In this document: piece after piece, positions 32,753 to 64,000 of the stretch
Layout: each line of letters begins with the position of its first letter
Numbering within the stretch: position 1 is the first letter of the stretch
IMG/VR virus record: IMGVR_UViG_3300029288_000086
Span: 79,091-143,090 of that record
Reading direction: 5' to 3' (one strand)
Length of the DNA stretch: 64,000 nucleotides
Origin: a virus
Taxonomy: Duplodnaviria; Caudoviricetes
Notes under the pieces: generated by a model
What the model was told of the DNA's origin: nothing
Databases searched by the model: none
What the model saw: only the letters and a program-made list of their open reading frames with translations
Translations under genes and position numbers: made by a program

Positions 32753-33700
32753 ATAAAAAAGTGCCCTGTGGAGTGGCATTAATCATTAATATGTTATGTG
32801 CCACTTGACGGGGCATAATTTTTCATTGATTATTTTTATTTTAACTCTAGTAATATATTAATAAAAAAAATTAAATATGTCTGATGTATAAAATAGGTTA
32901 TTGTATAATTGCAGTAACCTATTTTTATTTAATTTTTATTATTTTTGTCGAGAAATAGGAATAAGTGATTCGATAATAGCAGTTATCGTGTTGTTATTAT
33001 GTGTGATATATAAATGTAGGAATATGTGATTATATTTTTTTGATTATTCATATTTACAATATTAGTTATTATTATGTGTGATATATATATTCGATTATGA
33101 TTTCGATATTATTTTAGTATATTTTATTATTATTTTTATTTATTTTTTTAAAGTGTGTGAATAGATGTGCTACACCGACTTTTGATAGTATTTATGATGC
33201 TGAATTTGTAAAATAGGGGGTACTTATTATTATAATTGATATTGATTATTATTTATAATCACTATTGAATGCCTGGTAATGATGCTGATAGTGCATGAAA
33301 TGAAGATTTTATTAGGATATTTGTTCTATAATGAGTGTTTTAATAACTTTCGGGTAACATGCAATTTACGAGAGAAGTATTATATACCTTACACTATGAC
33401 TAACCCTATATACATATAGTATAATATACTTTACTTAATGTATAATAAACTTTACATAATAAGACTAACCCTATCATATTATCATACAATGATACAATAA
33501 CCTTAACCCTATAACCTTAATCCATCCATCCTACTACATACCCTATTTATACTACTTCATAGCCATTTTAATCACTCTCATATACTATTATATATAAAGT
33601 ATCATATTATCAATACAAATTGAAATTCTATCATAAATAATCAATCGTTTAATAAGCAAGTAAGTAAACTTAAAACAAAAAAGAGTAGGAACCAACCTAC
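32753..33700. other. AT-rich non-coding region (candidate origin or genome end)
   Basis: No ORFs; inverted repeat at 32761-32816; short direct repeats; G-rich to C-rich switch near 33.37 kb. Confidence 0.45.
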
Positions 33701-33707
33701 TCTTTTT
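33679..33707. terminator. Bidirectional terminator
   Basis: AAAAGAGTAGG-aaccaa-CCTACTCTTTT. Confidence 0.7.
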
Positions 33708-33874
33708 ATTTCACCAATTACACTTATCTATTCAATAGATAGAATATTATAAAAATTGATTACCTGATTCAAAGCCAGATTATAATACCTGTATAAAATA
33801 ATGCCACAAGTATAATAATTATTACTCTTAATACTATTTGGCCAACCGTGGGTTTATTCATTTTTTTAATTCCT

Positions 33875-34084
33875 TTATCCGGCTTCTTGATTAATCAATC
33901 TCTCGTAATAATCAACAGGAAAGTTAATAATGAATTGAGATATTCGAGACTCACGATTAAGTGCGCATAATTGATAATTATTAAAATTGTTAATTCGACG
34001 TTCTCTATTTTGTTTTTCTTGCTCTAGTTGTTTTTCGATCTTATCCATGTATTCCGTCATTTTATTCATTTTATTTGCTCCCAT
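33875..34084 (-). CDS. Hypothetical protein
   Basis: Small ORF in the leftward early cluster. Confidence 0.5.
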   Translation of the reverse strand: MGANKMNKMTEYMDKIEKQLEQEKQNRERRINNFNNYQLCALNRESRISQFIINFPVDYYERLINQEAG

Positions 34085-34101
34085 TTATTAGATTAAATTA
34101 A

Positions 34102-34281
34102 CTAGATATTTTGTTCATAATATTCAGAAAACAATTGTTGCCATTGTGCAAGTGTTAAATTACTTGCAATTACTTTGCCGTTTTGAATTACTTCACCGTT
34201 TACGATTCCGACACATCCCGAAAATTCTATTGATAAAATCTCACATGCGTTTAATTCCTTTGCATATTCATTTTTTGTCAT
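34102..34281 (-). CDS. Hypothetical protein (59 aa, MTKNEYAKELNACEIL...)
   Basis: Own translation; AAGGA RBS; promoter TTGACT-17-TATAAT at 34336-34308. Confidence 0.55.
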   Translation of the reverse strand: MTKNEYAKELNACEILSIEFSGCVGIVNGEVIQNGKVIASNLTLAQWQQLFSEYYEQNI

Positions 34282-34456
34282 ATTATCCGTCCTTTGTTTT
34301 TTCTTTTATTATAATAATTAAACAATAAAAAGTCAAATTAAAGAGTATAAAGTAATGCAAAATTTTGTATAAAATTCTCAAAATTGAATATAAAAAATCC
34401 TATTCTTAAGAAAATAGAAATTTTAAGAATAGGATGATTTTTATAATCTTGAAATA

Positions 34457-34753
34457 TTACTTTTTGGGTTCCAATTTTACCACCTGATGACGGCAAAATA
34501 CTGCACTAGTGGTTGTATATTTTCTGATGATCACTTCGCCGTTTTCGTTTTCTTTTTGAGTCGATCCGATTACAGGAATCTTTATACCATGTTGGCCTTT
34601 TTTAACACAATAACCTTGAACAAGCCATCTTTTATATGTAAAAACATCTTGGTATGGGATACAACCGCACGGTAAAGCATTAGCCACTGTTAAGGCGTTC
34701 GTGATGGAGAAGCGGTTAAATTGTGTAGCTTGTTCTTTGGTCATAGTAACCAT
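34457..34753 (-). CDS. ArdC-like N-terminal ssDNA-binding domain protein (anti-restriction-associated)
   Basis: FSITNAL...FTYKRW...GYCVKKGQHGIKI...VF..HQV matches the ArdC/DUF1738 pattern. Confidence 0.65.
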   Translation of the reverse strand: MVTMTKEQATQFNRFSITNALTVANALPCGCIPYQDVFTYKRWLVQGYCVKKGQHGIKIPVIGSTQKENENGEVIIRKYTTTSAVFCRHQVVKLEPKK

Positions 34754-34760
34754 GATTTTT

Positions 34761-34955
34761 TTATCCTCTTAAATTTTCAATATAACTTTTAGCTAAACTT
34801 TCCGCTATTGTATAGGATGGCAAGCCATCAGTTACATGAGTTAAAACAGTTTCACCAGTGGAAAGTTTACCAAATATTTTGAATCCCCAAATTGATCTCC
34901 CGTTAACTTTCTGGTATGTAATCTCAATGTTATGTCCCATTTTTTTATCCTCCAA
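34761..34955 (-). CDS. Hypothetical protein
   Basis: GGAGG RBS; promoter TTGACA-16-TATAAT at 35006-34979. Confidence 0.55.
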   Translation of the reverse strand: MEDKKMGHNIEITYQKVNGRSIWGFKIFGKLSTGETVLTHVTDGLPSYTIAESLAKSYIENLRG

Positions 34956-35444
34956 AAATTAGTTAATCAGATAATCTCATTATAACCATTATATTTAAAT
35001 TGTCAAGGGTTTTTAAATATTCGCTTTAAATTGGTATTTATACTCATTTTACCCTGTTTTTATCGCTTCTACATTATATGCAAAATTCTCACTATAAAAA
35101 TAATCTTTTTAACCTAAAATATGCCATTTTTAGCAATTTTAAGCATTATAGATATAAAGTATCATAATCATTGTACAAAACGATTACAGCGATTCCCACG
35201 AACCGATTTAAGATTGTTCTAATTTTCGTTAAGGTAATGTTCTATTTTTTGAATATAAAAATGGTTATTTTAGAAAATAATCTTAATAAAAGTTAAATAT
35301 AATTTTGGTATTAATAAGATTGAATTTTTAGTAAAATTTTAAGGTTGTTCTATAACATTTTTTAAGGTAAAATTCTACTATGTTCTATAATTTTGTGATA
35401 TAATGATTTATAAGTTAAATTCTATTTAAAAAAGGATAAAGAGG

Positions 35445-35765
35445 ATGACCGACCAAATAAAAAAACATACATTGTACCTTGGTTTGAATGATAAGGATAC
35501 AGGAACTCAAAAAATCGGAACTATTGAAAGTTACAAAATTACTCAGAATATTTTAACAGAATTTTGTGATGGTGGTACAATATTTGAAGCACAAGGTTTT
35601 TATAAACACCAGAACGGAACTATAACACTAGAAAAAACCTTGAGAATTGAATTACTATTCATTGATGATCAAACCGTTAAAAAAATATGCGATATGCTGA
35701 AAACAGTTTTTAATCAGGAATCCATCGCTATACAGTCAGAGGTAATCAATTCGGAACTTTACTAA
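35445..35765 (+). CDS. Putative SAM lyase / DUF3574-like PII-fold protein
   Basis: GGTIFEAQGFY...LEKTLRIE...LKTVFNQESI pattern; first gene of the rightward early region. Confidence 0.5.
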   Translation: MTDQIKKHTLYLGLNDKDTGTQKIGTIESYKITQNILTEFCDGGTIFEAQGFYKHQNGTITLEKTLRIELLFIDDQTVKKICDMLKTVFNQESIAIQSEVINSELY

Positions 35766-62635: not shown

Positions 62636-62642
62636 AATTTTT

Positions 62643-62715
62643 GCCCCTGTAACTCAATTGGACAGAGTGCCGGACTTCTAATCCGATGGTACAGATTCAA
62701 ATTCTGTCAGGGGCG
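62643..62715 (+). tRNA. tRNA-Arg(UCU)
   Basis: GCCCCTG/CAGGGGC acceptor; D-arm ACTCAATTGGACAGAGT; anticodon loop CTTCTAA; T-arm ACAGA-TTCAAAT-TCTGT. Confidence 0.85.
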
Positions 62716-62747
62716 CTAGGTAAAATTATTGAAAGGAGCTTAACAGA

Positions 62748-63032
62748 ATGACCTTAACAGATGAGCAAGTAATCAAACAAACTCCAAAAAAATGTTTTTT
62801 TGAGTACGAGCAAGCAAAGAAATCAAAGAAAGTAAATTTTTATGATTACAATGCAATGCGAGCTTATGCCAAAGAAAACAAATTAACACATCTCTATAAA
62901 ATGACTTGGAGTGATTACATGGATATGGTAGCAGGGTATAAAGTATTATTAGAACACTATAAGTTAAAGTGGTGGTTCGATGATAGGTGTGATGAAAAGG
63001 TACGTAAATCTAAAAAATTGGAGGTAGTATAA
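62748..63032 (+). CDS. Hypothetical protein
   Basis: AAGGAG RBS. Confidence 0.6.
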   Translation: MTLTDEQVIKQTPKKCFFEYEQAKKSKKVNFYDYNAMRAYAKENKLTHLYKMTWSDYMDMVAGYKVLLEHYKLKWWFDDRCDEKVRKSKKLEVV

Positions 63033-63241
63033 TGGCAGACATGTATAGTTCACCAACAGAAAGAGCTAAAGATGAATATTGGCTAAATCAAGATCGTATT
63101 GATATGAGTTGGGCAGAGCGAGTTCAACTTCATAATTCTGACTGTATGTTAGCCTTAACAGAAGAATTAAAAAGATTCAGAGAAACTTATGAATCCAACG
63201 AAAATCTTAAATTTATGACAGAACTTTATAAGATGGAGTAA
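63032..63241 (+). CDS. Hypothetical protein
   Basis: GGAGGT RBS; coupled to the previous gene. Confidence 0.55.
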   Translation: MADMYSSPTERAKDEYWLNQDRIDMSWAERVQLHNSDCMLALTEELKRFRETYESNENLKFMTELYKME

Positions 63242-63245
63242 TAAC

Positions 63246-63464
63246 ATGGATGAACATTTAAAAAATATTTTTAAATGGATTCGAGAAAAATTTCCAGAAG
63301 ATGACCCCGTATTAGAATTATTTGCAGATTTTTCTGTACACTTTAAAGATGATGACACGCAAGAAGATTTATTTATGTTTGATAATATCCTGAAAGTTAC
63401 AGAGAAAGATGTAAAAAATTGGAAATTAGAAAATGTAAATAAATGGTTGGATGGTTTACTTTAA
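63246..63464 (+). CDS. Hypothetical protein
   Basis: GGAG RBS. Confidence 0.55.
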   Translation: MDEHLKNIFKWIREKFPEDDPVLELFADFSVHFKDDDTQEDLFMFDNILKVTEKDVKNWKLENVNKWLDGLL

Positions 63465-63493
63465 TCTATTAAATTAAAAGGAGAATATAAAAA

Positions 63494-63760
63494 ATGAATA
63501 ACACTAACTTAAAACTCACACAGGATTCACAACGTAAATGGAATGTTGTTAACACAATCACAAATCAAGTCGTCACCGGTCACTTCACTAACAAATCTTT
63601 GGCGTTGGATGCTATGAAGAATTATAAAGCGCCTGAAGATGTAACAGCAACCAAAAAACCAATTACTATGTCTCGCAAAGATCATATCCGTCACGTTCGT
63701 GCGAAGGCGCAAGGTATTAGTTATGCCGAGTACGTTAGTAAGTATGTGGTTGGGGGATAA
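63494..63760 (+). CDS. Basic hypothetical protein
   Basis: AAGGAG RBS; RAKAQGISYAEY. Confidence 0.6.
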   Translation: MNNTNLKLTQDSQRKWNVVNTITNQVVTGHFTNKSLALDAMKNYKAPEDVTATKKPITMSRKDHIRHVRAKAQGISYAEYVSKYVVGG

Positions 63761-63761
63761 G

Positions 63762-63980
63762 ATGAAATTGTGTGATGAAAATTGTAATGAATGTCCTATT
63801 ATTGGACATCCAAATTCTAGAATGGTAACAAAAATTTTAAATGAATTGCAGAATAAATTTGGAGATGATGTTTGTCATATTGTTCAATATTTATGTCCTA
63901 ATTTAACTTGTTGTTTTGATTGCAGAATTGATGATTTTTGTCATATCGAAGGATGTGAATTGGCAGAACAATTTACATGA
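63762..63980 (+). CDS. Cys-rich small protein
   Basis: CDENCNEC...CPNLTCCFDCRIDDFCHIEGC; stop codon in a palindrome arm. Confidence 0.6.
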   Translation: MKLCDENCNECPIIGHPNSRMVTKILNELQNKFGDDVCHIVQYLCPNLTCCFDCRIDDFCHIEGCELAEQFT

Positions 63981-64000
63981 AATTAGTATTTCATGGGAAT

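Follow-up and report, generated by a model that had tools for sequence, protein, structure and literature searches.

What are the short palindromes that recur between the genes of a large phage genome, and what do they do there? The genome in question (G000; IMG/VR record IMGVR_UViG_3300029288_000086, Caudoviricetes) is a single contig of 143,090 bp with 32% G+C and a CheckV completeness of 78%. The stretch analyzed here, referred to as the window, is its last 64 kb (64,000 nucleotides, positions 79,091 to 143,090). Each palindrome, or site, has the form ATGAAA-N6-TTTCAT, that is, two inverted arms around a short spacer, and the interval between two successive sites is called a slot. These sites end segments that have been swapped between relatives, their spacers are far steadier than neutral positions, and a catalytically complete tyrosine recombinase is encoded in the core of the phage family. 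Judging from these sequence comparisons, the palindromes are very probably the crossover points of gene exchange, and we lean toward a mechanism in which they act as addressed joints for site-specific recombination, the spacer of each site being its address.

Anatomy and gene context of the sites

Exact copies of ATGAAA-N6-TTTCAT number 23 in the window, compared with 0.07 expected from dinucleotide shuffles. Allowing at most one mismatch and a spacer of 5-7 nt, approximately 40 sites lie between 33295 and 63994, together with 3-4 copies that carry two mismatches, and four more occupy junctions in the late, minus-strand arm (2883, 14470, 22407, and 24323). These counts agree with the roughly 43 plus 4 palindromes of the original prediction, which was made from the window alone. 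It gave 33295-63994 as the range of the array; the array extends over the whole genome, with about 100 copies on both arms when one mismatch is allowed. Four other matches to the motif (18907, 19275, 40610, and 48520) are all intragenic and probably reflect chance.

A position-by-position count over 89 copies yields an 11-6-11 site, WACCCC ATGAAA / B-NNNN-A / TTTCAT GGGGTW, whose symmetric arms and 6-bp center reproduce the core-site layout of Xer/dif-type tyrosine recombinases. In G000 the left arm is a mixture of ATGAAA and about 25% ATAAAA. The spacer measures 6 nt in around 90% of copies; the exceptions in the window are 5 nt at 14470, 51498, 56905, and 62189, and 7 nt at 48027, the same lengths that had been noticed earlier. 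Genome-wide, 88 of 89 six-nt spacers are distinct, in line with the earlier impression that all of them differ. Random 6-mers would give the same result, with 0.96 coincident pairs expected, so uniqueness inside one genome is not significant by itself.

The placement of the sites relative to genes is highly regular. The upstream stop codon ends at site position +3 (A-TGA-AA or A-TAA-AA) in about 25 copies and lies inside the spacer in four, and in most of the remaining copies it is found at most 16 nt before the site. Downstream, an AAAGGAG-type ribosome-binding site (RBS) follows, with the start codon at 10-60 nt. The 38 slots in the accessory arm of the window contain one gene in 18 cases, two in 11, and three in 4. 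Both the order of site, RBS, and one to three genes and the supply of stop codons by the left arm or the spacer had thus been read correctly from the sequence.

In both genome arms the palindromes come directly after stop codons on the strand that is transcribed, and they could represent RNA hairpins at gene 3' ends, acting as terminators, processing sites, or stabilizers. The folding data speak against this. The 30-nt site RNA has a mean folding energy of -4.4 kcal/mol (weaker than -5 for 61% of sites), and the sites lack a following U tract (mean 2.8 T in the next 10 nt, versus 3.2 expected), so that a weak, A/U-rich stem stands in place of the G+C-rich stem and U run of an intrinsic terminator. 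Mirrored positions in the flanks, arms, and spacer pair no more often than independence predicts, which indicates no compensatory covariation, and the common variant ATAAAA/TTTCAT introduces an A-C mismatch on the transcribed strand. A search against Rfam returned two tRNAs and no family matching the sites, and loops that are unique yet conserved have no evident RNA rationale. Moreover, most sites are followed by only 10-40 nt, RBS included, which leaves the next gene no space for its own promoter; promoter-like TTGACA-17-TANNNT sequences appear after a few sites only. We therefore regard RNA hairpins as very improbable. The pattern fits site halves conserved as sequence, as a dimeric DNA-binding protein would need, and not as a terminator or structured RNA; because the halves are kept without covariation, a protein would be reading the DNA rather than a folded strand.

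Spacers and cargo in related phages

An IMG/VR pattern scan provided three related contigs: G001, which is complete, spans 160 kb, and carries about 105 sites; G002, which is the same phage; and G003, a distant relative. Further searches added G004, and cargo proteins and Rec1, a tyrosine recombinase of G000 described below, led to L174-L181, L186, L187, and L192-L198. A scan of metagenome contigs with a 16-base pattern produced mostly single chance matches, with L063, L064, L089, and L140 as relatives among the matches listed. Among isolated phages, megablast with 12 kb of the window found no match; a capsid-region protein search reached distant Enterocloster phages only, and a Rec1 profile run against 185,579 species genomes in search of prophage copies or a host recovered only distant integrases (25-27% identity). 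Between G000 and G001, homologs exist for 89 of 274 proteins at 27-96% identity, the top DNA blocks reach 93% identity, and identity at fourfold-degenerate positions is 54% across 40 reciprocal-best gene pairs.

Despite this divergence, 47 of 91 six-nt spacers are identical between G000 and G001, all in the same orientation and none reversed, whereas 2.1 would be expected by chance. Of these, 45 are collinear, and just three more collinear pairs differ, by one transition each. At 54% neutral identity, the chance that a given 6-mer survives intact is 0.025; the retention of 47 therefore implies strong constraint or homogenization of the spacers. The conservation is narrowly confined: moving away from a shared site, identity drops to what unrelated site pairs show within a few bases on the left side and within about 30 nt on the right. 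Arm positions 2 (G/A) and 15 (C/T) vary between orthologous sites, and agreement at position 15 is at the random level (0.72 versus 0.70), while the spacers are invariant. Thus, paralogous sites have constant arms and free centers, whereas orthologous sites have constant centers and wobbling arms.

The addresses also recur beyond this pair of genomes. Around Rec1 they run in the order GCAACA, GTGTTC, CGACTG, CCGGTA, GTTCAA, TAGAGA, TGCCCG, CGCAAG, CAGATA, CGAAAA, and CAAGAG, and subsets of this series are found in seven genomes. TGCCCG and CGCAAG persist even in genomes whose Rec1 is only 51% identical. Where orthologous addresses differ, as in GTTCAA/GTTTAA/GTTTGA, they are separated by single transitions.

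The genes between the sites behave in the opposite manner. At plus-strand anchors shared by G000 and G001, the genes are unrelated on both sides in 28 of 40 cases and related on both sides in one. Together with the collinear spacers, these anchors bear out a check set beforehand, namely, that orthologous slots should keep their spacer while the cargo changes. Only 17% of site-touching genes have a G001 homolog, compared with 45% of other genes. Many slots contain one gene per genome, of differing length and sequence; for instance, a 251-amino-acid (aa) methylase in one genome corresponds to a 72-aa product in the other, and similar pairs are 111 versus 78 aa and 221 versus 207 aa. Matches among slot genes are bimodal, being either 72-95% identical or absent, which argues for replacement rather than drift. 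In G001, the radical-SAM pair found between TTTCCA and CAGCAA (window 48075-49457) is missing together with both of its flanking sites. The late arm shows a comparable case: the slot TTGCGA-TATCCG encodes a 559-aa protein without a family match in G000 (window 22492-24171, minus strand) and an unrelated 598-aa virion structural protein (phrog_1645) in G001 (L030:16076-17872, minus strand). The product of this slot may be a swapped host-recognition or decoration protein.

Two observations on individual cargo genes can be added. The 207-aa and 221-aa genes of adjacent slots were considered as paralogs and rejected as such (E = 1.3). A 175-aa protein in an accessory slot (window 55546-56073, plus strand) has a precomputed Pfam match, seen on the identical contig L179, to the restriction-type domain GmrSD_N (PF03235).

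Closely related contigs locate the exchange at base resolution. L177 and L178 are 99.6% identical over 11 kb on one side and 99.0% over 7 kb on the other, and the segment between the shared addresses TGCCCG and CGCAAG encodes an N6/N4 methylase in one contig and a PAPS reductase plus a 116-aa gene in the other. The two sequences part 6 nt past the first site's right arm and match again from 2 nt ahead of the second site's left arm. A third and a fourth cargo occur in further contigs that share this Rec1 protein and the sequence leading up to the TGCCCG joint. At this joint in L196/L197, the left arm and spacer are kept and the right arm TTTCAT GGGGTA is replaced by TTTTAT GCACCA, which implies that the right arm travels with the right-hand cargo and places the junction at the spacer or immediately beside it. 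Both the proposal of slot-by-slot swaps with relatives and the expectation that presence/absence breakpoints fall at sites are matched by these cases.

Other indications are less sharp. Ends of BLAST high-scoring segment pairs between G000 and G001 fall within 25 bp of sites in 12 of 112 cases against 4 expected, a weak signal, as the two genomes are too diverged for precise ends. The G000 contig itself starts 4 nt before a site (genome position 5) and ends 6 nt after one, and the same phage was assembled independently as L179, a contig that stops 2 nt short of the site at 44145. Because assemblers stop where co-existing strains diverge, these ends suggest that strain variation begins at the sites. 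G001 has 26 kb between the two addresses that end the G000 contig.

The sites also have counterparts in the Bacillus phage SPbeta. Its genome (NC_001884; L183-L185) contains 34 palindromes of the form TAAAA-N6-TTTTA, against 2.2 expected, which the record does not annotate as such. Many of them provide the TAA that ends the preceding gene (yoqC, yoqG, yorT, mtbP, yorZ, yosC, yosF, and yosR). The relatives L186 and L187 likewise have chiefly TAAAA arms, and the ATGAAA sites thus appear to be one arm "dialect" of a feature found across the SPbeta-like family. No published description of these junction palindromes was found in a literature search that was incomplete.

Candidate recombinases and rival explanations

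Two tyrosine recombinases are encoded by G000 and two by G001 (PF00589 matches). Rec1 (302 aa; genome 26867-27775, plus strand, outside the window) has XerA, XerC, and XerD as its top matches, including the XerA structures PDB 4a8e and 5hxy and NCBIfam NF040815 (E 1e-35). Its scores fall below the curated cut-offs (XerA_Arch, 123 bits versus 220; XerC, 71 versus 335), and we classify it as a predicted Xer-like enzyme outside the curated Xer families; integron-integrase models scored far below cut-off (TIGR02249, 43 bits versus 265). Residues R147, K169, H240, R243, H266, and Y275 are invariant in 24 homologs, down to 45% identity, and the gene is syntenic in all relatives recovered, with the glycan block on one side and the replication block on the other. 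Rec2 (331 aa; genome 78243-79238, minus strand) is YomM-like (SPbeta YomM, E 3e-13) and looks active from its sequence. MrpR, the recombinase-fold repressor of SPbeta, was found on checking to lack the catalytic residues, in agreement with the published account (PMC10516654).

The mechanism that we favor would operate as follows. The sites would split the accessory genome of the SPbeta-like family into slots. The two inverted arms of about 11 bp would be bound, as sequence, by a tyrosine-recombinase dimer, most likely of Rec1, with the YomM-like Rec2 as the other candidate, and the 6-bp spacer would be the region of strand exchange. A site would recombine productively only with its like-addressed counterpart in a relative that is co-infecting or resident, and since exchange would require matching spacers, crossovers would always be in register. 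A single crossover would combine the left portion of one genome with the right portion of its partner, a double crossover would swap a slot, and the unlike spacers inside one genome would block self-deletion. Binding and cutting of the sites by Rec1 and the mechanistic need for spacer identity are what we infer from the 11-6-11 anatomy, the individually conserved centers, the swaps that end at the core, the arm that travels with its cargo, and the conserved Xer-like enzyme. More tentatively, the whole could amount to a natural form of recombinase-mediated cassette exchange, in which a phage Xer-like enzyme acts on about 100 heterospecific sites whose centers serve as family-wide coordinates and are held by selection for exchangeability.

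Several observations weigh against this proposal. A 207-aa gene lies between GAACGA and CATCTA in G000 and between CATCTA and TTTCCA in G001, at 91% DNA identity. Cargo can therefore move between slots whose spacers are intact, and addressing is not absolute; such a shift calls for exchange within the arms, or else for exchange of a single strand that replication then resolves. About one-third of anchors keep the leader and RBS past the site while the next open reading frame (ORF) differs, so that a second junction near the start codon must exist. G004 has only 5 of 24 addresses in common with G000, which indicates that addresses do turn over. Rec1 or Rec2 could each be the integrase of a temperate phage, their tie to the sites being a putative one, and genomes whose Rec1 is 51% identical keep unchanged arms, leaving no covariation between enzyme and site to exploit. 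Finally, no selective force for constant spacers is evident if exchange is their sole role.

The main rival is homologous recombination at islands of identity that are kept for some other DNA-level function, in the manner of Botstein-type linkers, with crossing over carried out, for example, by a Sak4-type annealing protein. Conserved cores of 18-30 bp inside unalignable flanks are what such islands would look like, the conserved leader lengthens them at some anchors, and the position of the junctions varies, from inside the right arm to 6 nt after it or 2 nt before a left arm; this is also how the repeats of T4-like phages known as PeSLs (promoter-early stem-loops) are considered to work (PMC2839356, PMC4122927). 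Homologous recombination, however, has no need of common palindromic arms and a fixed 6-bp center, it leaves a spacer steadier than its arms unexplained, and the "other function" is unnamed. The tract shared at the TGCCCG joint can also be as short as about 15 bp, which is below the usual minimal pairing length for homologous recombination. We consider this reading unlikely. It is improbable that the sites serve a dimeric DNA-binding protein (a repressor, for instance, or an MrpR-like regulator) as operators or roadblocks, with mosaic borders coinciding with them only because both are intergenic. This reading resembles the alternative offered in the original prediction, operators for a dead recombinase-fold repressor, which our results disfavor. 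Symmetric half-sites kept as sequence, some 100 copies at gene boundaries, and the precedent of a repressor with a tyrosine-recombinase fold in SPbeta (PMC10516654) all suit operators. Nevertheless, they would account neither for site-unique spacers that are identical between diverged genomes nor for swaps that end at the site core, and the center, uncontacted under an operator reading, is the most conserved part between genomes. Rec1 retains all of the catalytic residues that MrpR lost, the sites follow stop codons instead of overlapping promoters, and the two palindromes annotated in the SPbeta repressor region (yopK-yopS), which may or may not be the SPBRE operators, differ in sequence from its TAAAA-N6-TTTTA junction sites.

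Two further explanations address the centers directly. A dimeric restriction-like endonuclease could cut the spacers to leave unique sticky ends, with fragments of relatives re-ligated in order. Unique, conserved centers would indeed order such re-joining, the interrupted-palindrome layout resembles SfiI- or BglI-type sites, and several HNH nucleases and DNA methylases are encoded; yet no nuclease and ligase conserved as a pair emerged as candidates, cuts at 100 places in one genome would be hazardous, and a conserved tyrosine recombinase is the simpler agent, so that we give this explanation little credence. Least credible are selfish miniature repeats (REP- or MITE-like) copied into intergenic DNA. 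They would be consistent with the high copy number, the palindromic form, and the intergenic position, but copying would also copy the center, whereas 88 of 89 centers differ and relatives have the same center at the same place. No HUH (RAYT-type) transposase was present among the scanned proteins, a scan that covered part of the ORFs.

Genome context and relation to known systems

The sites of the window are collected in Table 1.

Table 1. Features in window coordinates. The address is the spacer of a site, and a site is listed as shared when the named relative has an identical spacer.
Feature	Coordinates	Strand	Shared with	Remark
Rec2, first 49 codons	1..148	-		rest left of window
TCACGA, late arm	2883..2900	.		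stop of minus-strand gene 2889-3485 in spacer
ACACG (5 nt), late arm	14470..14486	.		intergenic
TTGCGA, late arm	22407..22424	.	G001	left border of slot with differing virion gene
TATCCG, late arm	24323..24340	.	G001	right border of TTGCGA slot
TGAAGA	33295..33312	.	G001	
CTCTTA	36802..36819	.		
TACTCA	37898..37915	.	G001, G004	
TCTATC	38401..38418	.	G001	
TAACCT	39963..39980	.	G001, G004	
TAATCC	42445..42462	.	G001	
GAGTGG	42994..43011	.	G001	
TGTCAA	44145..44162	.	G001, G004	metagenome contig L179 ends 2 nt before
CTTTTC	45562..45579	.	G001	followed by sigma-A-like promoter
GAACGA	45877..45894	.		left border of 207-aa gene (G001: one slot further on)
CATCTA	46568..46585	.	G001	
TTTCCA	47303..47320	.	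G001	
CAAGAA	47723..47740	.		site and cargo both missing from G001
ACTAAGA (7 nt)	48027..48045	.		precedes radical-SAM pair; pair missing from G001
CAGCAA	49467..49484	.	G001	
CAATGA	50092..50109	.	G001	upstream stop in spacer
CCGCGA	50330..50347	.		
TCATAA	50559..50576	.	G004	upstream stop in spacer
TCAGGA	50803..50820	.		
ACAAT (5 nt)	51498..51514	.		
TTCTAC	51774..51791	.	G001	
TACCAC	52655..52672	.	G001	leader to start codon conserved too
TTCAGA	53006..53023	.		
TTTATA	53224..53241	.	G001	
TATATC	53450..53467	.		left border, single-gene DNA methyltransferase slot
TCTTCG	54423..54440	.		right border, methyltransferase slot
TGATGT	54710..54727	.	L186	
CTGTTA	55227..55244	.		followed by promoter-like region
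GTTCTA	55505..55522	.	G001	leader 96% conserved, genes on both sides unrelated
TTACCG	56280..56297	.	G001, G004, L186	
TGCTC (5 nt)	56905..56921	.		
TAAGGT	57333..57350	.		
TGAGAC, degenerate	57749..57766	.	G001	two arm mismatches
CAATGC	58181..58198	.		collinear G001 site CAACGC, one transition off
GAAGAA	58687..58704	.		
CGTTCA	59406..59423	.	G001, G004	G001 homology stops at site
GGACTG	60106..60123	.		
AGATTA	60324..60341	.	L186	
CACTTC, degenerate	60568..60585	.		two arm mismatches; end of ORF 60368-60571
CAATCA	60840..60857	.		
TCACTA	61411..61428	.	G001	
TCGCA (5 nt)	62189..62205	.		
TTAGTA	63977..63994	.	G001	contig stops 6 nt later

The layout of the G000 genome is like that of SPbeta. 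Its late arm is headed by a gene for an 848-aa protein (window 27564-30110, minus strand) that matches the Pfam RdRP family PF05183 and a PHROG of equal length. As SPbeta has yonO at this place, the protein is probably a YonO-type single-subunit RNA polymerase. The genome also encodes a PolIII-alpha-type polymerase, a primase-helicase, a split ribonucleotide reductase, HNH endonucleases, several N6/N4 DNA methylases, and a glycosyltransferase block. The latter, at genome 7.4-20.7 kb (L042), comprises at least seven glycosyltransferase or FkbM-methyltransferase genes and a UDP-galactopyranose mutase fragment; it is nearly free of sites, is kept in relatives, and contains an HNH_3 homing-type endonuclease at 18205-18753. 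The window has tRNA genes for Thr (TGT; 22294-22375, minus strand) and Arg (TCT; 62643-62716, plus strand). Among the relatives, one carries a Cas12f1/TnpB-like gene in its accessory arm (L180:20255-20921), and another an intein within its PolIII-alpha polymerase (L175:19151-20909).

Two sequence elements occur beside the sites. With 1.85 copies expected, CTTAACAG is present 19 times (window 34687-63161; 18 copies on the plus strand), often a few bases past a palindrome and ahead of the RBS (e.g., 44167, 45899, 46590, 47325, and 47748); it could be a leader or promoter element. At six or seven sites (window 36790-42995), AGAACA-N5/6-TTCC runs straight into the left arm; it is kept in G001. Two of these copies are perfect GAAC-N4-GTTC (42432 and 42981), the form of the Firmicute LexA box. 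A LexA (Cheo) box beside the sites was nonetheless rejected, as two perfect copies against 0.48 expected are not significant.

Ever since Botstein's modular theory, it has been debated whether the breaks in phage mosaics arise through conserved linkers or through random illegitimate joins that selection then filters. This phage family offers a testable answer, with dense, ordered, and addressed joints, swaps resolved to the base, and a candidate enzyme on board; and because SPbeta has the same kind of site (34 copies), a genetic test is possible in Bacillus subtilis. If the proposal is true, it would explain how large temperate phages turn over accessory genes rapidly without breaking genome order, the genes concerned in G000 including DNA methylases, the radical-SAM pair, and the GmrSD-like gene. 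Two relatives meeting in a cell could then exchange any slot, or a genome arm, in register. The sites would also yield natural orthogonal recombination sites for multiplex genome engineering, and they pose a population-genetic puzzle, in that non-coding 6-mers are steadier than protein sequences.

Among known repeats of phage genomes, SPBRE, a motif of SPbeta reported to be 15 bp long and to lie at nine peaks, is bound by MrpR, which has a recombinase fold without catalytic residues (PMC10516654). Both SPBRE and the stoperators of mycobacteriophage L5 resemble the present sites as short sequences repeated in a phage genome, although operators give no reason for individually conserved centers. 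Among phages, the closest precedent for repeats that shuffle genes at their junctions is provided by the PeSLs, which lie at junctions of small variable genes in plastic regions of T4-like phages and mark where indels and replacements between relatives end (PMC2839356, PMC4122927). The present sites likewise sit at junctions of variable genes, are scarce in core modules, and mark the ends of replacements. PeSLs, however, combine a sigma-70 promoter with a stable G/C-rich terminator and are thought to act through homologous recombination, whereas our sites are mostly promoterless and weakly folding and have common arms of a protein-binding type around an individual, conserved center.

Outside phages, the pdif sites of Acinetobacter Rep_3 plasmids are recombined by XerC/XerD on this principle, and the need for matching spacers there has experimental support (PMC13141974). 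In both systems, many sites of the arm/6-bp spacer/arm type bracket modules of one to a few genes, and a single module can be replaced where the spacers on both sides are shared, as reported for pdif (PMC13141974) and seen here in L177/L178. The phage system differs in its carrier, in its approximately 100 collinear sites, in encoding its own recombinase, and in having addresses whose order is kept as a scaffold throughout a virus family. In addition, pdif sites have distinct XerC and XerD arms and alternate in orientation, while the phage arms are symmetric, which suggests one recombinase, and shared spacers are never reversed.

Single-recombinase Xer/dif systems (archaeal XerA, XerH, and XerS) share the 11-6-11 core site, and Rec1, with its full catalytic set, is nearest to XerA; they use one site per chromosome for dimer resolution, in contrast to about 100 phage sites with unlike spacers. 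The integron-like label of the original prediction is a loose one. It fits insofar as mostly promoterless single genes are followed by a site that often contains the stop codon, and a tyrosine recombinase is present. It fails in that the phage has no IntI, no attI/Pc platform, and no attC-type structure. attC sites are long imperfect hairpins recombined as folded single strands and move with their cassette, whereas the phage sites are near-perfect palindromes of 18-28 bp, are found genome-wide on both arms, and stay while the cargo changes. In heterospecific lox/FRT cassette exchange, sites with identical arms and unlike spacers recombine like with like, and the segment is swapped in register rather than deleted. 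That design is man-made and employs two or three sites; the phage would represent its natural version, with about 100.

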